Positions 431 through 14,174 of a stretch of 30,477 bases of DNA are shown piece after piece. The stretch covers positions 1-30,477 of the forward strand of contig CAYVXP010000001.1 in NCBI GenBank assembly GCA_964455165.1. The letters are read 5' to 3'. Position numbers and translations under genes: made by a program. Below the pieces are notes generated by a model. It saw only the letters and a program-made list of their open reading frames with translations, had not been told where the DNA came from and did no database searches. Origin of the DNA: an uncultured Gammaproteobacteria bacterium (lineage in GTDB: Bacteria; Patescibacteriota; Patescibacteriia; UBA1558; GWA2-36-10). Each line of letters starts with the position of its first letter. Within the stretch, counting starts at the first letter, position 1.

Positions 431-1747
431 TTATTTAGTTTTTTTAGATTTAGCGGGTTTCTTTTCTTTTTTGACCTTTGTCTCCTCCCCGCCAGAGGCG
501 GGTCCGCCTTTGGCGGATACTTCATCCGTTTCTTCAACACTCTCTTCTTGTGTCTCCTCTACTTCTTCGGCTTTGTCAGCTGTGCTTAGAGGAGCGTGGT
601 TACTGGGGTTTTTATCAGGGTTACTAGGAGATATGATATCAATTTTCCAGCCAGTCAACTTGGCAGCTAGACGAGCATTTTGCCCACCGCGACCAATAGC
701 TAGTGATAGTTGATCATCATTGACCATGACTTTGGCGGTTTTACTTTCTTCGTCTACTTCTATTTTGCCGATGCTAGCTGGACTCAAAGAGTTGGCAATA
801 AAAGTTTTTGGATCACTATTCCAATGAATGATATCTATTTTTTCACCACCGAGCTCACTGATGACGGTTTGTACTCTGGCACCCCTTTGACCAACACATG
901 AGCCAATTGGGTCGATATTTTCGTCAGCGGTAAAGACAGCTATTTTGGTACGAGCACCAGCTTCACGAGCAATGGATTTTATCTCTACTGTACCAGCAGC
1001 AATTTCTGGTACTTCGGTAGCGAATAATTCTTTGACAATTTCTGGATGAGTGCGGGATAGGATGATTTCTGGTCCTTTGCTACCCATGCGGACAGCGGAG
1101 ATATAAAAGTTTAAGCGAGTACCAATATTGTAGCCTTCACTACGAATTTGTTCTTCGGGGGCCAAGACTCCAGTAGCTTGACCAAGGTCTACGATAAAGC
1201 GACGACCTTCTCGTCTTTGGATAGTACCTATAGTCAATTGACCTTCTTTATCTTTATATTCACTGAAGATATGATCTCTTTCAGCTTCACGTAGACGTTG
1301 GATGATGACTTGTTTGGCAGTCTGAGCAGCCATGCGACCATACTCTTCTGGTACTGGTAGTTTGGTTTCTATGACATCACCAATCTTGTAGTCACTGTTG
1401 ATAGTTTGAGCTTCAGCAATCATGATTTCAGCGCGAGGATTAAATTTCTTAATCATCTCTTCTTCACTGATTTCTTCGCCAGCTTCTTTGCGGGCATGCA
1501 TTTCTTCTAGTTGCTTTTCTTGTTCTTCTAGGTCAACATTTTCGACGACAGTTTTTACGTCAAAAACTGCTGTTTGGCCATTGTCAGCATTGAAGACTAC
1601 TTTGATGTTTTGATTAGGGGTACCATACTCCTTGCGGTAGGCAGCAGCTAGAGCCGCCTCGATGGCACCAATGACTGCCTCAGTGGACAGGTTTTTTTCT
1701 TGGCAAACCTGCTTGATAGCAGCGAGCATTGTGTTATTACTCGACAT
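431..1747 (-). CDS. nusA: Transcription termination/antitermination factor NusA with an acidic/Lys-rich C-terminal tail
   Basis: Motifs YGRMAAQTAKQVIIQRLREAER, AREAGARTKIAV, IDPIGSCVGQRGARV, QLSLAIGRGGQNARLAAKLTGWKIDI. Confidence 0.98.
   Translation of the reverse strand: MSSNNTMLAAIKQVCQEKNLSTEAVIGAIEAALAAAYRKEYGTPNQNIKVVFNADNGQTAVFDVKTVVENVDLEEQEKQLEEMHARKEAGEEISEEEMIKKFNPRAEIMIAEAQTINSDYKIGDVIETKLPVPEEYGRMAAQTAKQVIIQRLREAERDHIFSEYKDKEGQLTIGTIQRREGRRFIVDLGQATGVLAPEEQIRSEGYNIGTRLNFYISAVRMGSKGPEIILSRTHPEIVKELFATEVPEIAAGTVEIKSIAREAGARTKIAVFTADENIDPIGSCVGQRGARVQTVISELGGEKIDIIHWNSDPKTFIANSLSPASIGKIEVDEESKTAKVMVNDDQLSLAIGRGGQNARLAAKLTGWKIDIISPSNPDKNPSNHAPLSTADKAEEVEETQEESVEETDEVSAKGGPASGGEETKVKKEKKPAKSKKTK
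488..517. repeat. 30-bp double-hairpin element (CCCGCC-AGA-GGCGGG + TCCGCC-TTT-GGCGGA) in frame within nusA
   Basis: Two adjacent perfect 6-bp-stem palindromes; they encode SAKGGPASGG (NusA codons 411-420). Confidence 0.85.
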
Positions 1748-2211: not shown

Positions 2212-2622
2212 TTATTTTTTAGCCTTAGGCAACCATTTGTTGAATTCGGCATTTTCTTCTTTTTTCTTTTTGATTTTTGGAATAGTGATCAAATAGTAAA
2301 ATAGTAGATAAATAGCCCAGACCAATATACCTATAGCCCAAAGCAAAAGCCACAAACGAGAGCCTAAATACATGGCTCTGGTTTCTCGAAATAGTATAAA
2401 TAGTAAACCGACGATACTGCTAGTCCAGCCAAAGCCAATCAATTTTTTGTAAAAAGATTTTTTGTAGCCAGGATTTTTGGCTAATTGGCGTTGAGCCAAA
2501 ATAGCTAGCACAATAGCCAAGACACAAAAACCATAAAGAGCCACTCGAAAAGGAGTAGATAAGGCTTCAAAGGTATAGGCACGGAATAGGTAAGACCAGT
2601 CCAATAGTTTTGTTAAATCCAT
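2212..2622 (-). CDS. Hypothetical membrane protein (about 3-4 TM, basic C-terminus)
   Basis: 136-aa ORF with hydrophobic stretches, same orientation as its neighbours. Confidence 0.8.
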   Translation of the reverse strand: MDLTKLLDWSYLFRAYTFEALSTPFRVALYGFCVLAIVLAILAQRQLAKNPGYKKSFYKKLIGFGWTSSIVGLLFILFRETRAMYLGSRLWLLLWAIGILVWAIYLLFYYLITIPKIKKKKEENAEFNKWLPKAKK

Positions 2623-2708
2623 AATGTTTATTTATATGAGATATGTTAGATAATTTACGGAATAAAGTCAAATATAAAAGCGCCTGATTATTGGCGCTAG
2701 TATTTTTA

Positions 2709-3314
2709 TTATTTTTTGCTAAAAATCAAACCAAAGTGGTATGGGCCAGCCTTGAACTGCTGGACTAGGTCCAAATCCATTTGCGAGGCTAGACTCATGA
2801 TTTCTTCTGGTTTGGCTAGTCTTTCTTTAGAGGGTCCAAATGACAAATCATTGTCAGCCCAGTCAATCACTAGTAGTTTAGCACCTTTTTTTAATAAGCG
2901 AGTGGCTTCAGACATTATTTCAAAATGTTTTTCGGACTGATATAGGACATTGACCAAAATAGCGGAGTCCAGACTTTCACTATTTATTTTGGTAGCACCA
3001 ATGAGCTCTAGATTGCTCCAGACAGTTTTTATGTTATTGAGTCCGGACAGTCTAGCTTTTGATTCTAGTTCAGATAAAATATTTTTTACTACATCGACAG
3101 CATAGACTTGGCCCTGATCACCGACGAGGCGAGCGGCTTGCATCAAAAATAATCCGCCACCAGCACCTAGGTCACCGACCATATCTCCTTTTTTGACTTG
3201 CAATAATTCACTGAGTATTTTACCAGCGTCCATTAGTTCACTCTTGCCACCGACATTTGGAGTAGTCAAGGCAGAGTTGTTACTTGGTGTAATTTGTGTA
3301 GTTATTTCATTCAT
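2709..3314 (-). CDS. Class I SAM-dependent methyltransferase (UbiE-like)
   Basis: VGDLGAGGG motif I, VYAVD motif II, LLVIDW. Confidence 0.88.
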   Translation of the reverse strand: MNEITTQITPSNNSALTTPNVGGKSELMDAGKILSELLQVKKGDMVGDLGAGGGLFLMQAARLVGDQGQVYAVDVVKNILSELESKARLSGLNNIKTVWSNLELIGATKINSESLDSAILVNVLYQSEKHFEIMSEATRLLKKGAKLLVIDWADNDLSFGPSKERLAKPEEIMSLASQMDLDLVQQFKAGPYHFGLIFSKK

Positions 3315-3363
3315 ATTTTTGTATATTTATTATACCAAAAAATATAAGTATCCGCCACCAGCA

Positions 3364-3392
3364 TTGACTTTTGTCAAAGATCAAGTTATAAT
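3364..3392 (+). promoter_or_regulatory. sigma70-type promoter for the tRNA-Glu locus
   Basis: TTGACT(3364-3369)-17 nt-TATAAT(3387-3392). Confidence 0.75.
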
Positions 3393-3449
3393 CTGCCTTG
3401 TATTTTATATATTTGGCCCTATCGTCTAATGGTTAGGACACCAGGTTTT

Positions 3450-3480
3450 TCCCGCGTAGCGGGACCCCGCTCTGCGGTGG
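3450..3480. repeat. 31-bp double-hairpin element (TCCCGC-GTA-GCGGGA + CCCCGC-TCT-GCGGTGG) in the anticodon of the outer tRNA copy
   Basis: First palindrome perfect, second with one extra T; same 15+15 layout as the nusA element. Confidence 0.8.
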
Positions 3481-3544
3481 CATCCTCATGGCCAATAAGT
3501 TGTTTGAAAATTAATAATAATTCATCTCGGCTTGGTGACCTGAC

Positions 3545-3619
3545 GGCCCTATCGTCTAATGGTTAGGACACCAGGTTTTCATCCTGGCAATCGGGGTTCG
3601 ATTCCCCGTGGGGTCACCA
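3545..3619 (+). tRNA. tRNA-Glu (anticodon TTC), intact, CCA encoded
   Basis: Acceptor GGCCCTA/TGGGGTC, anticodon arm CCAGG-TTTTCAT-CCTGG, T arm CGGGG-TTCGATT-CCCCG, 3' ACCA; 75 nt. Confidence 0.97.
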
Positions 3620-3679
3620 AGCCGGCAAGAATTAATAACAGTTTGGCAATCGGGGTTCGATTCCCCGTGGGGTCACCAG

Positions 3680-3710
3680 AAAAAAATCAACCAAAATAGG
3701 TTGTTTTTTT
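3680..3710 (+). terminator. Intrinsic terminator after the tRNA locus
   Basis: CAACC-AAAATA-GGTTG followed by T7. Confidence 0.65.
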
Positions 3711-3735
3711 GTTTTAGGCTAGTCAAGCTTTTTCT

Positions 3736-3764
3736 TTGACATTTAGCTTCAAAGATGCTATTAT
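3736..3764 (+). promoter_or_regulatory. sigma70-type promoter of the cold-shock gene, giving a 5' UTR of about 125 nt
   Basis: TTGACA(3736-3741)-17 nt-TATTAT(3759-3764) with an extended -10 TG. Confidence 0.75.
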
Positions 3765-3894
3765 CATGGACAAACGATTGTCTTGGTGCGCTTTATTCAT
3801 AAAGCCTGCCAAAACAGTAGTTTATGCATTCACTAGCGGAAATATAGTCGAATTTCTAGCTACCTATGCTTTAATTCACTTTATTTCTAAAATT

Positions 3895-4095
3895 ATGCAA
3901 GGCAAAATCAAGAAATTAGTAAGCGATAAAAATTTTGGTTTCATTACTCCAGAAGATGGCGGAAAAGATTTATTTTTTCATGCCAACGAATTGAGTGGTG
4001 TTTCATTCGATCAATTACACGAAGGTGACGATGTCACTTTTGACATGAGCGATACACCAAAAGGACCAGCAGCTGTTAAAGTTAGCTTAGTCTAA
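3895..4095 (+). CDS. cspA: Cold-shock protein (CSD), 66 aa
   Basis: MQGKIKKLVSDKNFGFITPEDGGKDLFFHANEL with RNP1/RNP2 motifs. The true start is ATG 3895, not the 3736 start in the ORF track. Confidence 0.93.
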   Translation: MQGKIKKLVSDKNFGFITPEDGGKDLFFHANELSGVSFDQLHEGDDVTFDMSDTPKGPAAVKVSLV

Positions 4096-5639: not shown

Positions 5640-5676
5640 CCCCGCGAAGTCCCGCCTTAGCGGGAAGGGGGCGGGG
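5640..5676. repeat. Nested GC-rich palindrome (CCCCGC ... TCCCGC-CTTA-GCGGGA ... GCGGGG), intergenic
   Basis: Inner stem 5650-5665 lies inside outer stem 5640-5645/5671-5676, in otherwise AT-rich DNA. Confidence 0.75.
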
Positions 5677-8034: not shown

Positions 8035-10578
8035 ATGGGTGATCAGGATAGACAAATAGATTTACCAAAGGCCTACGAAGCCTCAGAGCATGAAAAAGCT
8101 ATTTATCAGCTGTGGCTTGATAGTGGTTTTTTTAATCCTGATAATTTAAAAAATGATGGTCCAGCTTTTACTATATCTATGCCCCCGCCAAACGCTACTG
8201 GTATTTTACACCTTGGGCATGCGGCTGGTTTGGCTGTAGAGGATATAGTGATTCGTTATAAGCGTTTGCAAGGCTACAGAGCTTTATGGTTACCGGGTAC
8301 TGATCACGCCTCTATTGCTACACAAACCAAAGTAGAAAAAATATTAGCCAGCGAAGGTACTGATCGCTATACTTTGGGTAGAGAAAAATTTTTAGAACGG
8401 GTTAAGCAATATGTGGCTGATTCTCAGGGTACTATCCGTGAACAAATAAGACGCATTGGTTCTAGTTGTGATTGGTCTCGTGAGCGCTACACTTTTGATG
8501 ATGGGCTATCTCGAGCAGTCAATGAGGCTTTTATCCGCATGTATAATGACGGTCTGATTTACCGCGGTTATCGTATCGTCAATTGGTGTCCGCGTTGCGC
8601 CTCTACTATAGCTGATGATGAAGTAGAGCACGAAGAACAAGACGCTAAATTGTATTATATAAAATACGGTCCCTTTGTCGTCGCTACTACTAGACCAGAA
8701 ACCAAGCTAGCTGACACTGGCGCAGCTGTCCATCCTGATGATGGGCGTTATCAGCAATACCTTGGTCAAACTTTGGAGATTGATCTGGCTGGTCACAAGA
8801 TCAAAGTAAAAGTTTTTGCTGATAAGAGTATTGATCCAACATTTGGCTCTGGTGTAGTTGGTGTCACACCAGCCCATAGCTTGGTGGACTACGACTTTGC
8901 TCAAAAAAATAATCTAGAAATAATCAAGCTCATAGATGAGCAAGGAAAATTATTGGCTAGTGGAGGTAAGTATTCCGGACTAGACGTACTAGAAGCTAGG
9001 AAGCAATTCGTAGCTGATCTACAAGCCGGTGGCTTATTAGAAAAAACAGAGGACATAAAAAATAATTTGTCAGTCTGCTATCGCTGTCAGACAGCCATCG
9101 AACCTCTGCCATCAGAGCAGTGGTTTGTGGCCGTTGATAAAAAAATTCCTGGTCGTGATAAGTCACTCAAAGAGCTTTCCACTGAAGTTGTCAAACACAA
9201 AGATATCAGGATCATGCCCCATCGTTTTGAAAAGATATATTTTAATTGGATGGAAAATCTCCATGACTGGTGTATCTCTAGACAATTGTGGTGGGGGCAC
9301 CGCATCCCTATCTGGTATACAGATGACAAGCAGATTATAGTAGCTCATGATGAAGCCGAGGCCAAAGCCAAGGCTAATGGTCAAAATATTACTCAAGATC
9401 CGGATACCCTAGATACTTGGTTTTCATCTTCATTGTGGACTTTTTCTACCCTAGGCTGGCCAGATAATACCAAGGATCTACAGCTCTATCACCCGACTGG
9501 CTTGATGGAGACTGGCTATGATATTATTTTCTTCTGGGTAGCCAGGATGATTTTGATGACGGAATATTTACTGAATGACAAGCCTTTTTCTTTGGTTTAT
9601 TTACACGGCATAGTGCGTGACAAGGAAGGGAGAAAATTAAGTAAATCTCTGGGCAATGGTATTGACCCAATAGAGATGATAGACAAGTATGGTGCTGATG
9701 CTTTGCGTTTGTCGGTTATTATCGGTGCTACTCCTGGCAATGACTCTCGTGTTTATGAAGAAAAGATTGCTGGCTATCGTAATTTTGTAAATAAACTTTG
9801 GAACATTTCTCGCTTTATTTTTTCCTCAGTCAGCGTGATCAAAAGAGTACAACATGAGCCAGAGGCAAAAACCTTAGCCGATGCTTGGATTTTGTCGGAG
9901 TACAATAATCTAGTAGAAGAGGTGACCACTGATTTTCATAAATATAATCTATCAGTAGCCGGAGAAAAGCTTTATGAGTTTACTTGGTCAAAGTTAGCTG
10001 ATTGGTATCTAGAACTAGCTAAGTTTGAAAAAAATAAGGACGAAATTTTACTTTATATTTTGGAGCGTCTACTTATTATGTGGCATCCTTTTACACCTTT
10101 TGTCACTGAGTTGATTTGGAAGCAATTCCAATCAAAAAATTTAATCATGGTCGAGCATTGGCCAAAAGCTAAAGCACAAAATCAAGAGGCAGTCACAGCC
10201 TTTGCTGAGCTGATGGAGCTAGTGACTATGGTCCGCAACCTCAAAGCAGAAAATAAAATGCGTACAGCGGACAAACCAGATTGTTATATTGAAAATAAAA
10301 TTTTATTTCAAGAGTCAAAATTGACAGCCTCTCATTTGGCTGGTGTCACTTTGCAGGCTAGTGTTATTGATGGAGTAAAGTTTAATACTAGTCATGGCTA
10401 TTTTATCATCAATCTGCATAAGCCACTCAAAGAGCAAGAAGTAGCTAGTATGCAAAAGTATATCGCCGAGCTAGAAGCAAAATTAGCCAACAAGGCTTTT
10501 ACGGAAAATGCTCCACGGCAAATTGTCGATGAGGCTAGACAAAAATTAGAACAAGCTAAGAAAAAAATAGCCCCCTAG
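8035..10578 (+). CDS. valS: Valine--tRNA ligase
   Basis: PPPNATGILHLGHA, PGTDHASIATQ, DWCISRQLWWGHRIP, DPDTLDTWFSS, KLSKSLGN. Confidence 0.98.
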   Translation: MGDQDRQIDLPKAYEASEHEKAIYQLWLDSGFFNPDNLKNDGPAFTISMPPPNATGILHLGHAAGLAVEDIVIRYKRLQGYRALWLPGTDHASIATQTKVEKILASEGTDRYTLGREKFLERVKQYVADSQGTIREQIRRIGSSCDWSRERYTFDDGLSRAVNEAFIRMYNDGLIYRGYRIVNWCPRCASTIADDEVEHEEQDAKLYYIKYGPFVVATTRPETKLADTGAAVHPDDGRYQQYLGQTLEIDLAGHKIKVKVFADKSIDPTFGSGVVGVTPAHSLVDYDFAQKNNLEIIKLIDEQGKLLASGGKYSGLDVLEARKQFVADLQAGGLLEKTEDIKNNLSVCYRCQTAIEPLPSEQWFVAVDKKIPGRDKSLKELSTEVVKHKDIRIMPHRFEKIYFNWMENLHDWCISRQLWWGHRIPIWYTDDKQIIVAHDEAEAKAKANGQNITQDPDTLDTWFSSSLWTFSTLGWPDNTKDLQLYHPTGLMETGYDIIFFWVARMILMTEYLLNDKPFSLVYLHGIVRDKEGRKLSKSLGNGIDPIEMIDKYGADALRLSVIIGATPGNDSRVYEEKIAGYRNFVNKLWNISRFIFSSVSVIKRVQHEPEAKTLADAWILSEYNNLVEEVTTDFHKYNLSVAGEKLYEFTWSKLADWYLELAKFEKNKDEILLYILERLLIMWHPFTPFVTELIWKQFQSKNLIMVEHWPKAKAQNQEAVTAFAELMELVTMVRNLKAENKMRTADKPDCYIENKILFQESKLTASHLAGVTLQASVIDGVKFNTSHGYFIINLHKPLKEQEVASMQKYIAELEAKLANKAFTENAPRQIVDEARQKLEQAKKKIAP

Positions 10579-12316: not shown

Positions 12317-12423
12317 GTATTTTTTCTTATTCTATCTTATAATAAATTATACTTTTGCTAAGGTCAAAAGTCAATTAAAAAACCGCTTCCAGTAAATTTT
12401 AGAAACGGTTTTTTTATATTATT

Positions 12424-13398
12424 TTAGCGAGTCAAGGCTGGTAAATTTCTATGAGCAAATCTGTGTATCTTGCTATGACTTGGCGCTTTACCATTGAGGC
12501 GTATAAAAATATTGGCCCATAGTAGATTATAAAAGGCGCCATAAAAAGAAGTAATAAGTAGGAAAGTGGCTATAGCCGCAAAAGAACCGAGGACGACTAA
12601 GAGGTAAAATACTACTGTGCTGACCTGCATCAATAGAGCTAGGACAATAAATGGAGTGAAGATAAAGGCTATGGCGGCCATACCAACCACAATATAAATG
12701 ATAGAGAATAATAATATGGTAATGGCACTTTCTACAGTAATCATCCAGTTGGCTCGAAATAATTCCCAGCCGTTATTAAAAGCTTTCCAGAGCGATTGAT
12801 TATAGATGACTATGTAGGCCATACCAAAGCGAGTAGCAAAAGAAATCATGACCATCAGTGGTATGAGCAGGAAGAATACTATCAAGGAGAGTAGGAAATA
12901 AAAAGTTAGACCGCTGTTTACAACTATCAGGCTAATCATTGGACTGATGACAAAGACAATAAAGAAGTAGCCTATCAGAGTGTTGATTAAATTTATGCCC
13001 AATAGTGGCCAAAATTTTTCTAAAGCCACGGCTAGACTATTATTTACTTTTCCTTTACTGCTTTTTAGATATTTGGAAGCACTGTGTATCAAGGCGCCTT
13101 GTGAGGAGACGGAAAGTATCAGGATGATGGCGTAAATAATGAATAAGCCAATGAGAGTGATATAGCTATCAGCCATAGACCAGTCTATTTGATTCTGACT
13201 GGCTAGTTTTTGTATGCTATTCCACCAAGTGATCACCCAAGAACCCAAGAAATCAGGATTGGCCCCCTGAAAATTAAAGGCCATTTTTATTTCGTTGAAT
13301 CCGAGGAGTGAGGCGAATAGACCAAAAAATAATAAATGAAAGTTTTGTTTAATGATTTGCCACGATTGACTAAAAATTTTACGATAGAATGGTTCCAT
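12424..13398 (-). CDS. Hypothetical polytopic membrane protein
   Basis: 324-aa ORF with several TM segments; resembles conserved CPR membrane proteins. Confidence 0.8.
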   Translation of the reverse strand: MEPFYRKIFSQSWQIIKQNFHLLFFGLFASLLGFNEIKMAFNFQGANPDFLGSWVITWWNSIQKLASQNQIDWSMADSYITLIGLFIIYAIILILSVSSQGALIHSASKYLKSSKGKVNNSLAVALEKFWPLLGINLINTLIGYFFIVFVISPMISLIVVNSGLTFYFLLSLIVFFLLIPLMVMISFATRFGMAYIVIYNQSLWKAFNNGWELFRANWMITVESAITILLFSIIYIVVGMAAIAFIFTPFIVLALLMQVSTVVFYLLVVLGSFAAIATFLLITSFYGAFYNLLWANIFIRLNGKAPSHSKIHRFAHRNLPALTR

Positions 13399-13459
13399 AT
13401 TTTTTATTTTAAGCTTTTATTTTAGTTCGATATTATTATAACATATTTTAGTCTTATAT

Positions 13460-13491
13460 AAAAGAACAACCAAAGTCTTGGTTGTTCTTTT
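13460..13491. terminator. Intrinsic terminator
   Basis: Perfect 14-bp stem AAAAGAACAACCAA-AGTC-TTGGTTGTTCTTTT. Confidence 0.8.
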
Positions 13492-13508
13492 GTTAGGCTG
13501 ATAATTTT

Positions 13509-14174
13509 TTATTCTTGCTTTGGTTTCATCGAAGAATGATTGTGGGTTATTTCCCACGCACCATCTTTATTCTTTTCCCAGATAAATGAAAATCTAGCTT
13601 CAATAATTTGTTGTGCATCTTCTGGTCCTATTATAAAATTTTGTAAGCCAGACTGTAAATATTTGTCGGGACCAAGGTGTTGTACTTGCTCTTCAATGAT
13701 TTCACCTTTGGTATTTTTTTCAAGTATATTTTTAAAATTAAGCGCCTCTTTTTCACTTGGCTTTATAGAAGAATGGTGGTGTATAATCTCCCATTGATTA
13801 TCTTCGTTTTTTTCCCAGACAAAAGAAAATTCTGCCTCAACCATCTGTCTTTGTTCACTTGGCCCTATTTCAAAATCATATTTGCCGTAATGTAAATAAC
13901 TATTTTCTCCTAGTGGCCTTACTTGTTCTTCTATAATTTTGCAGCTAGGATTTTTTTCTAGAAAATGAGTAAAATACTCAGCTGCTTCACCAGGACCTTT
14001 TTTAAAATCTGGAGAAACTGTGGGTAAAAAAGTTGATTCTGGTCCGTAGAGTCTTGCTATTGTTTTAGCGTCTTCGCCAAGGGCGTCTTGCCAGCGCTGA
14101 GAATTAAGTTGGGCTATTTCCATTGTAGTTTCTTTTTTCGTTTCTATTGATGTATTGGTAGGAAATTGTTCCAT
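13509..14174 (-). CDS. SgcJ/EcaC (DUF4440, CaMKII-association/SnoaL-like fold) protein with a duplicated C-terminal half
   Basis: W..AL......A.LY.....FLPTVS, ARF(S/T)FVW......W.I.HHHSS..P family motifs; internal repeat with a 79-aa period. Confidence 0.82.
   Translation of the reverse strand: MEQFPTNTSIETKKETTMEIAQLNSQRWQDALGEDAKTIARLYGPESTFLPTVSPDFKKGPGEAAEYFTHFLEKNPSCKIIEEQVRPLGENSYLHYGKYDFEIGPSEQRQMVEAEFSFVWEKNEDNQWEIIHHHSSIKPSEKEALNFKNILEKNTKGEIIEEQVQHLGPDKYLQSGLQNFIIGPEDAQQIIEARFSFIWEKNKDGAWEITHNHSSMKPKQE

Follow-up and report, generated by a model that had tools for sequence, protein, structure and literature searches.

A nested tRNA-Glu locus in a CPR-like bacterium as a probable gene-less remnant of a small GIY-YIG cassette

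In a window of 30,477 nucleotides (the whole stretch of DNA that was analyzed), an intact tRNA-Glu gene lies between the displaced pieces of a second copy of itself. The locus is most probably the gene-less remnant of a small selfish GIY-YIG cassette that resides in tRNA genes of ultra-small, CPR-like bacteria. It would form one transcription unit with one functional product, the inner tRNA-Glu(UUC), and the two half-copies around it would be the displaced remains of a tRNA-Glu gene whose anticodon arm was interrupted by a mobile cassette. Stacked integration scars, one of the explanations offered in an earlier note on this DNA, came among the closest to this reading. The host genome spans 0.79 Mb in 131 contigs, with 37.6% GC, and is 92% complete.

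Organization of the tRNA-Glu locus

All parts of the locus lie on the forward strand. A sigma-70-type promoter for the whole unit (3364-3392; TTGACT, 17 nt, TATAAT) matches 11 of 12 consensus positions and is placed 5' of the outer 5' fragment, as is also the case in other nested tRNA loci of this genome and of its relatives. The outer 5' fragment (3415-3449) corresponds to tRNA-Glu positions 1-35, ends with U35 of the anticodon and is 100% identical to 3545-3579; relatives share this fragment, there interrupted by additional GC hairpins. The following 31-nt insert (3450-3480), which had been described as a hairpin and folds as predicted, is a double hairpin of two 6-bp GC stems with 3-nt loops. 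It lies between tRNA positions 35 and 36 and is the left-junction element of the cassette. By sequence comparison, CATCCT (3481-3486) represents tRNA positions 36-41, with which the displaced 5' part ends, and in all related loci the double hairpin is followed by CATCC(T).

Downstream of this junction is an AT-rich spacer of 58 nt (3487-3544), at the place where ORF-bearing relatives have a GIY-YIG gene of approximately 85 aa. The spacer contains no ORF and no recognizable GIY-YIG remnant. It hosts a weak promoter-like site (3489-3518) and, at its 3' end, a leader arm (3528-3540) that is complementary to the 3' end of the tRNA plus the trailer. The intact tRNA-Glu(UUC), with encoded CCA, occupies 3545-3619; it was detected by ARAGORN and by the Rfam tRNA model (62.6 bits), both of which call the inner copy alone, and its counterparts in G001 and G002 are 100% identical to it. 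According to duplex prediction, the trailer arm (3612-3624) is composed of the last 8 nt of the tRNA plus AGCCG. A spacer of 24 nt (3620-3643), conserved in G005, G001 and G002, separates the inner tRNA from the outer 3' fragment (3644-3678), which corresponds to the displaced tRNA positions 41/42-75 with CCA and is 100% identical to 3585-3619 over 35 nt. Outer 3' fragments are also present in G005, G006, G025 and G038, as well as in the ORF-bearing loci L057, L058, L100 and L199. An intrinsic terminator (3688-3712), composed of a hairpin (3688-3703) and a T run, closes the unit. The neighboring genes encode a methyltransferase, NusA and a cold-shock protein.

Most of what the earlier note had described in the sequence was confirmed. 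The three outer pieces (3415-3449, 3481-3486 and 3645-3678) join to a sequence identical, letter for letter, to the inner tRNA, and a promoter and a terminator do surround the unit. The two flanking duplicates, given as 35 nt each, are both exact; T3644 can be assigned to either piece, so that the 3' half measures 34 or 35 nt. Chance cannot account for a pair of exact 35-mers in a span of 264 nt. No tRNA-Glu(UUC) gene besides the inner copy was found in the genome, which has one tRNA-Glu(CUC).

Related cassettes and shells

We found the complete form of the cassette in other genomes. In G034, an ORF of 84 aa lies between a 5' fragment and an intact tRNA-Glu, and it encodes a GIY-YIG domain (PF01541, E 4.7e-10). 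Cassette ORFs matched Pfam PF01541 alone, and searches against NCBIfam and PDB sequences returned nothing specific. When the G034 ORF was used as a query, it was present in 22 of the 39 genomes of the family. In 13 of the 30 fetched loci with small GIY-YIG ORFs in the window's family, an intact tRNA in the same orientation lies immediately downstream of the ORF, and in ten of these 13 the ORF follows a hairpin-split 5' fragment of its own tRNA. The tRNAs involved are Glu(UUC), Glu(CUC), fMet, Lys(CUU), Phe and Gln, and one tRNA-Gln locus is composed of three layers. The cassette ORFs cluster by target tRNA, and the DNA of different genera is similar (77-91%) only within the cassette.

To find the junction of the window's locus elsewhere, we scanned public genome and metagenome contigs with a 16-mer composed of tRNA-Glu positions 22-35 plus TC. 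Most matches were due to chance, for example in FtsH genes, and 13 were true loci. Six of them (L057 from Moraniibacteriota, L058, L059, L100, L137 and L199) have the order tRNA-Glu 1-35, double hairpin of around 30 nt at 35/36, CATCC, short linker, GIY-YIG ORF and intact tRNA-Glu. L057, L058, L100 and L199 have outer 3' fragments too, and hence the nested layout of the window with the gene retained. Five other loci (L134, L186, L217, L257 and L282) are ORF-less like the window, and the spacers of L134 and L282 contain remnants of the ORF, either a Shine-Dalgarno site or the first codons. L137 and L282 are tandem units, and in L257 an ORF is flanked by tRNA-Glu(UUC) and by a tRNA-Glu(CUC) that is nearly identical to it. 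Together, the two outer pieces of L100 represent a single, coherent tRNA-Glu allele, distinct from that of the inner tRNA; the outer 5' piece of L186 likewise differs from its inner allele. Since inner and outer alleles differ in these two loci (on the 5' side in L186), the inner copy was imported with the cassette.

Compared to a complete cassette, the window's locus has the displaced, hairpin-bearing 5' fragment and the intact downstream tRNA, and it lacks the nuclease ORF. It is an ORF-less derivative rather than a complete member, because its spacer has no ORF where its counterparts carry one; since the spacer has no ORF remnant either, the link to the ORF-bearing cassettes is the architecture of the junction, which they have in common. 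Cassettes that combine an ORF with the 35/36 hairpin belong to CPR lineages other than the window's family, and in the tRNA-Glu cassettes with ORFs of the family itself (G034 and G011) the insertion is at position 24, not 41.

The double hairpin has the same design and the same site in at least 11 loci of distant lineages: two adjacent 6-bp stems with loops of 3-4 nt, TC at the start and GG at the end before CATCC. Over 11 aligned copies, the first stem is paired in all, with three of its six pairs changed on both sides. When both stems are considered, 92% of the cells are paired compared to 78% in shuffles, and there are 15 double-sided changes, a value that was reached by none of 500 shuffles; controls in which the stems were slid collapse. 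As the stems covary, the constraint is on structure, either in RNA or in single-stranded DNA.

At least six further tRNA genes of this genome, namely Asp, Leu(CAG), Leu(UAG), Val(GAC), Lys(UUU) and Arg(GCG), have self-fragments upstream, downstream or on both sides. In the shells with an upstream fragment the promoter lies 5' of the fragment, and the fragments are split by GC hairpins. The gap from Arg to Lys(CUU) in this genome contains no ORF remnant; an unrelated small membrane ORF is found there instead. A search of related genomes, suggested in the earlier note, returned the nested layout in the same genus (G001, G002, G004, G005 and G006) and in other genera and another family (G025, G028, G034, G015 and G038). 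Variants of the tRNA-Glu layout occur in the other genera (G025, G028 and G015) and in the other family (G038). Within the genus, G001 and G002 lack a 3' shell, and their 5' shell contains one to two extra hairpins. Both shells are present in G006, with inserts; the 5' shell of G004 is very short; only a 3' shell occurs in G005; and the gene of G003 is plain. The inner cassettes of G004 and G006 differ. In the tree of the neighboring methyltransferase gene, which is one gene with a midpoint root, the plain and half forms are placed among the nested ones, and because of this position the plain form of G003 and the half form of G005 are most simply explained as losses. According to the same one-gene, midpoint-rooted tree, the flanks of G002 belong to one clade and its inner unit to the other. 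The cassette is therefore present in some close relatives, absent from others, and subject to turnover among them.

Outer copies in relatives are incomplete and have inserts in the D, T and acceptor arms, and different hairpins entered different sites of the fragments in different genomes. Within the genus, the outer 5' pieces show zero to one mismatch in approximately 41 nt when compared to the inner copy; between the same genomes, 15-16 of 60 positions of promoter and leader DNA differ. Outer pieces are better conserved than the nearby promoter DNA, which seems to go beyond neutral debris. That outer and inner copies are nearly identical may be due to conversion in which the hairpins were looped out, to the unit having been copied anew several times, or to selection.

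The complete cassette would consist of the GC-rich double hairpin at 35/36, tRNA positions 36-41, the GIY-YIG gene of around 85 aa and a full replacement tRNA-Glu. Its nuclease gene would be free-standing and driven by the tRNA promoter, and the host would retain a working tRNA and be unable to shed the element easily. In the genome analyzed here the nuclease gene was probably deleted, leaving the 58-nt spacer. The cassette may have spread through repair of nuclease-triggered breaks or through recombination, by analogy with phage SegB and with the Ssn-type nucleases that act at hairpins; on sequence grounds, its homing, meaning cleavage of an empty allele and copying into it, is putative. From the positions of promoter and terminator and from one low-depth RNA contig, the inner tRNA would be transcribed from the upstream promoter within a transcript of approximately 300 nt. 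The inner tRNA would then be freed by RNase P and 3' trimming and the rest would be discarded, with the outer pieces as inert passengers of the primary transcript and the helix between leader and trailer possibly helping the release.

The leader/trailer helix and other readings of the locus

In reverse complement, the 13 nt of the leader arm match the 3'-terminal 8 nt of the tRNA together with the 5 nt that follow it, and a weaker pairing extends to 39 nt between two imperfect arms (3508-3546 and 3606-3644). The resulting duplex has a free energy of -32.5 kcal/mol (z -9.3). Comparable duplexes (-32 to -38 kcal/mol, z -7 to -10 compared to shuffled leaders) are found in seven of the eight ORF-less nested tRNA-Glu loci, the exception being L134 from a distant lineage. 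The duplex is absent from ten of 11 plain loci and from all six ORF-bearing loci. The apparent exception among the plain loci is G015 (-22 kcal/mol, z -3.5), where a contig end cuts the locus, which looks nested. The leader motif was searched in 86 genomes of the order and occurs only in G000, G001, G002 and G025. The sequences of the arms differ among G000/G001/G002, G025, G004/L217 and G006, and the helix is kept by compensatory change; this maintenance, too, seems to go beyond neutral debris. G015 also keeps the helix with a different sequence. Around the tRNA-Asp of the genome analyzed here, the helix is perfect over 16 bp. Because the arms differ within the genome and covary between genomes, a requirement on structure fits better than one on sequence. 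We rejected a MITE with terminal inverted repeats that carries the tRNA, as the arms differ between tRNA-Glu and tRNA-Asp and covary between genomes. A T run follows the trailer arm in G004, G006, L217 and G015. The helix may act as a processing stem or as a terminator that depends on folding, or it may consist of a pair of hairpin arms with the tRNA copied into the loop.

Some of these data may suggest a further step beyond a remnant. The ORF-less nested units could be a second-generation, non-autonomous form of the cassette used by the host or by the element, with the hairpin as a handle for Ssn-like nucleases encoded elsewhere and the helix as an rRNA-style processing stem or a split terminator. 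We regard this as a minority possibility. If it were true, nicking of single-stranded DNA at the hairpin would move or homogenize the unit, and this would account both for the swapped cassette of G002 and for outer copies that are nearly identical to the inner ones.

A shell of whatever origin could instead now serve tRNA maturation as a co-opted nested precursor, a reading that we consider rather unlikely. The outer acceptor stem and the leader/trailer helix would keep the ends together and thereby offer defined sites to RNase P, and possibly to RNase III, or build a split terminator that closes after folding of the tRNA. The minimum-energy fold of the whole unit is indeed closed by the outer acceptor stem and the helix (-115.5 kcal/mol, z -4.6), and it does not use the pairing between CCAGG and TTTGG that the earlier note had proposed. 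The strength of the helix across at least four different sequences, its absence from plain and ORF-bearing loci, the T run after the trailer arm in the four loci mentioned above and the unusual conservation of the outer pieces all favor a role in maturation. A contig from an RNA library of a related strain extends from the spacer, with the leader, through the inner tRNA and the trailer into the beginning of the outer 3' piece. This contig fits co-transcription, but at a depth of 2 it may be carried-over DNA. RNase P RNA is present in the genome; RNase III was seen only as a fragment of 31 bits. The predicted tRNA-within-tRNA fold is largely a consequence of the repeats themselves, and the inserts of the outer fragments differ from genome to genome. 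Moreover, the gene of G003 is plain, and one side of the shell is missing in G005, G001 and G002. A processing scaffold, as put forward in the earlier note, is therefore not needed as an explanation.

We also weighed local damage and rescue with no nuclease cassette involved, in which GC palindromic repeats, on their spread across the genome, struck the single tRNA-Glu gene and a duplication restored a copy of it. Several kinds of GC hairpin do occur in many outer fragments and in intergenic DNA, repeats similar to NTS are found in the genome, and the window's locus has no ORF. However, distant lineages share the 35/36 double hairpin in both position and design, with a GIY-YIG ORF physically attached to it, the ORF is tied to the layout across many different tRNAs, and inner and outer alleles differ in L100 and L186. 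Damage and rescue without a cassette is thus very unlikely. The earlier note had proposed the rescue of an essential tRNA whose anticodon was hit by the hairpin. Of this proposal, the split of the tRNA and the supply of an intact copy hold; the hairpin as a separate hit does not, since it is the conserved junction of the cassette.

It is highly improbable that the outer copy is a true interrupted tRNA, with the double hairpin and a segment of 158 nt spliced out as introns to return a second tRNA-Glu. The three outer pieces of the window exactly make a full tRNA, a U precedes the insert and a G ends it, and the stems of the hairpin covary as in structured RNA. Against this, an Rfam search of 3250-3850 with E-values up to 10 returned the tRNA and chance matches, with no intron, group I or other ribozyme family, and 31 nt are too short for a ribozyme. 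EndA (PF01974) and RtcB (PF01139) were not found in the 92%-complete genome, in which the controls respond. A pattern search for a hairpin-bearing tRNA-Glu copy with an intact 3' continuation returned none in 401 genomes of the class. The failure to find splicing enzymes and the incomplete outer copies of the relatives, with their inserts in the D, T and acceptor arms, render a spliced outer tRNA unlikely, and with it the cloverleaf with a giant anticodon loop of the earlier note as a source of a second tRNA. A group I intron was rejected since covariance models detected no ribozyme core and the insert has 31 nt, compared to about 200 nt or more. Archaeal-type splicing was rejected since neither EndA nor RtcB was found in the 92%-complete genome and the outer copies of relatives are incomplete. 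The scar of an integrase att site was rejected since no integrase lies nearby and the duplication is two-sided instead of 3'-only.

Finally, we excluded a local misassembly, which the earlier note had left open. The nested order is borne out by exact contigs from DNA metagenomes of two independent studies (3250-3444, 3420-3574 or 3460-3579, 3590-3673, and 3649-3850), interrupted only at repeats that are longer than the 31-letter assembly word. Across the pieces, the depth is even (5.6-8.4 in metagenome X1) and, because it is single-copy, the nested order is the only linear path through them. The outer pieces of several relatives are broken by inserts, and therefore contain no long repeat that could confuse an assembler. 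Although the source is a fragmented metagenome bin of 131 contigs and no single short contig spans the unit, owing to repeats longer than the assembler word, a collapse or chimeric joining of strain variants is hardly credible with all junctions present at even depth in two unrelated data sets and the same order assembled in relatives whose repeats are broken.

Relation to known systems and significance

Our literature search returned no paper on tRNA introns or on GIY-YIG cassettes in tRNA genes of CPR bacteria, and none of the nearest described systems couples a small nuclease cassette within tRNA genes of bacteria to a replacement tRNA. New here are the covarying stems of the hairpin, the leader/trailer helix that occurs only in ORF-less nested loci, and the near-identity of outer and inner copies.

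SegB of the T-even phages is a free-standing GIY-YIG homing endonuclease in a cluster of tRNA genes (PMC2330249; PMC13096335). Similarly to the cassette, its gene lies among or beside tRNA genes and is co-inherited with the flanking tRNA DNA; it drives segmental duplication of tRNA genes through breaks and short homologies, which compares with the tandem units of L137 and L282. However, SegB has approximately 220 aa, including a DNA-binding part, is encoded by phages and lies between tRNA genes rather than inside one, whereas the cassette ORF has around 85 aa, is chromosomal in ultra-small bacteria, and is found within a tRNA gene together with a replacement copy and a conserved hairpin; the window's locus has no ORF. 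The intact inner tRNA should itself be a target of the nuclease, a point for which the cassette model has no explanation. Why the intact tRNA escapes cutting is a question that has been raised for SegB as well.

Ssn proteins (cd10448) are single-domain GIY-YIG nucleases of about 100 aa that cut single-stranded DNA beside the hairpin repeats (NTS/SRM) that flank their own genes (Chenal et al. 2025, PMC11893778). They share with the cassette a small GIY-YIG protein and GC hairpins. The first hairpin of the window's 31-nt insert comes very close to the dRS3/NTS core of that paper, with a loop shorter by one nt. The genome contains about eight near-consensus NTS-like repeats and two free small GIY-YIG ORFs, one of which (C64) is followed on its 3' side by a near-consensus NTS. 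Unlike in the Ssn system, the ORFs of the tRNA cassettes form a clade that is separate and distant from the free NTS-associated ORFs of this genome, and tRNA genes are nowhere mentioned in the Ssn paper, which describes no link to tRNA (PMC11893778).

In CPR bacteria, rRNA genes contain insertions, some of which encode GIY-YIG proteins outside recognizable introns (PMC11270868). These differ from the cassette in that they concern rRNA genes only and bring no replacement copy of the gene; tRNA genes were not treated in that study (PMC11270868). Islands and prophages inserted by integrases (attL/attR) resemble the window's locus, as a partial tRNA copy flanks the insert and the gene is restored. 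They differ from it in having a 3'-only duplication, a tyrosine integrase and kilobases of cargo, compared to a two-sided duplication and an insert of 158 nt in the window. Mobile endonuclease ORFs of fungal mitochondria, such as that of Allomyces atp6 and similar ones, bring along a replacement end for the gene that they enter. As with the cassette, an essential gene is entered, the displaced part is supplied, the gene stays functional and the old part is kept as a fragment; there, however, protein genes of organelles are affected and only at the 3' end, whereas here a whole tRNA is replaced and fragments are found on both sides. Group I introns are known in the anticodon loops of bacterial tRNAs (PMC3984707). 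Together with the intron-containing and split tRNAs of archaea, they share with the window's locus an interruption in the anticodon loop and exons that join on paper, but here no ribozyme core, splicing endonuclease or ligase was found, and the 'intron' holds a complete copy of the same tRNA.

Genes for tRNA are usually seen as passive landing sites of integrases. In the bacteria analyzed here, tiny nuclease cassettes appear to reside inside them, to pay for their entry with a replacement tRNA and to exploit the strong tRNA promoter. The layered shells that result confuse tRNA annotation and assembly, and the cassettes may create new isoacceptors, as in L257 with its near-identical tRNA-Glu(UUC) and tRNA-Glu(CUC) on the two sides of an ORF. 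They may also connect the hairpin-specific nucleases of single strands, a family described only recently, with a defined role in genomes. To this picture, which is relevant for mobile DNA, tRNA biology and CPR genomes, the window's locus would add the end state of the cycle, fully nested and with the nuclease gene lost, together with a pair of conserved structures, namely the double hairpin and the helix of leader and trailer.

Shelled tRNA genes and a shared hairpin

Outside the window, six more tRNA genes of the same genome (Asp, Leu-CAG, Val-GAC, Leu-UAG, Lys-UUU and Arg-GCG) are flanked, on the upstream side, the downstream side or both, by pieces of their own sequence that are split by hairpins. 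These shelled loci lie on contigs C15 (5349-5610), C18 (10809-11140), C31 (63-231 and 861-1121), C16 (9309-9480) and C37 (2300-2561). At tRNA-Asp, leader and trailer form a perfect helix of 16 bp. The tRNA-Arg(GCG) locus on C37 is not reliably assembled, because a 10-N scaffold gap (~2366-2375) separates the tRNA from a copy of its own 3' half. On C56 (401-509, minus strand), ARAGORN in intron mode called a tRNA-Gly(GCC) interrupted at position 12 by 33 additional nt; this may be a further hairpin-bearing tRNA copy or else a false call.

We also observed a conserved element of 45-85 nt that starts immediately downstream of the terminal CCA in several different tRNAs and terminates in another ACCA. 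It occurs on C16 (~9250-9340, minus strand), C18 (11053-11140, plus strand), C37 (~2230-2330, minus strand) and C15 (~8990-9075, minus strand), as well as in two further loci, L027 and L039. This element and the 31-nt insert of the nested tRNA-Glu have the hairpin TCCCGCGTRGCGGGA in common.

Surroundings of the nested tRNA-Glu

Among the neighbouring genes in the window, no integrase, transposase or phage gene adjoins the nested locus. The neighbouring genes encode NusA (431-1747, minus strand), a class I methyltransferase (2709-3314, minus strand) and a cold-shock protein (3736-4095, plus strand) with its own promoter (3736-3764). Additional double hairpins, GC-rich and of CCCCGC/GCGGG type, stand amid AT-rich DNA at 488-517 and 5640-5676, and one of the two falls inside the NusA reading frame region. 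Within the spacer, a weak promoter-like site (3489-3518, 9 of 12 positions) could provide the inner tRNA with its own transcription start.

Free GIY-YIG ORFs and NTS-like repeats

The genome has two free-standing GIY-YIG ORFs of ~95 aa (C64, 810-1142; C79, 1867-2180), each followed by a hairpin repeat, and about 8 repeats that are near-exact to the published Neisseria NTS consensus. Further coordinates listed with these ORFs and repeats are C10 4506, C24 8349, C73 3871 and C120 1054. Judged by sequence, they are a predicted Ssn/SRM-type system (small GIY-YIG nucleases with hairpin repeats; PMC11893778) in a CPR-like genome.

Tandem arrays and isoacceptor genes

Two public loci with related cassettes contain tandem arrays, each upstream of a single intact tRNA-Glu. 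In L137 (6280-7020) the 5' half, hairpin and ORF occur twice, and in L282 (~2460-2810, minus strand) the unit is present in three copies devoid of the ORF. Both arrays resemble segmental amplification of the SegB type, named after a phage GIY-YIG nuclease in a tRNA cluster. On the metagenome contig L257 (~12390-13700), a GIY-YIG ORF separates tRNA-Glu(UUC) from a near-identical tRNA-Glu(CUC); in L024 a GIY-YIG ORF lies upstream of tRNA-Glu(CUC). Layouts such as these last two suggest that new isoacceptor genes may arise by cassette-driven duplication.
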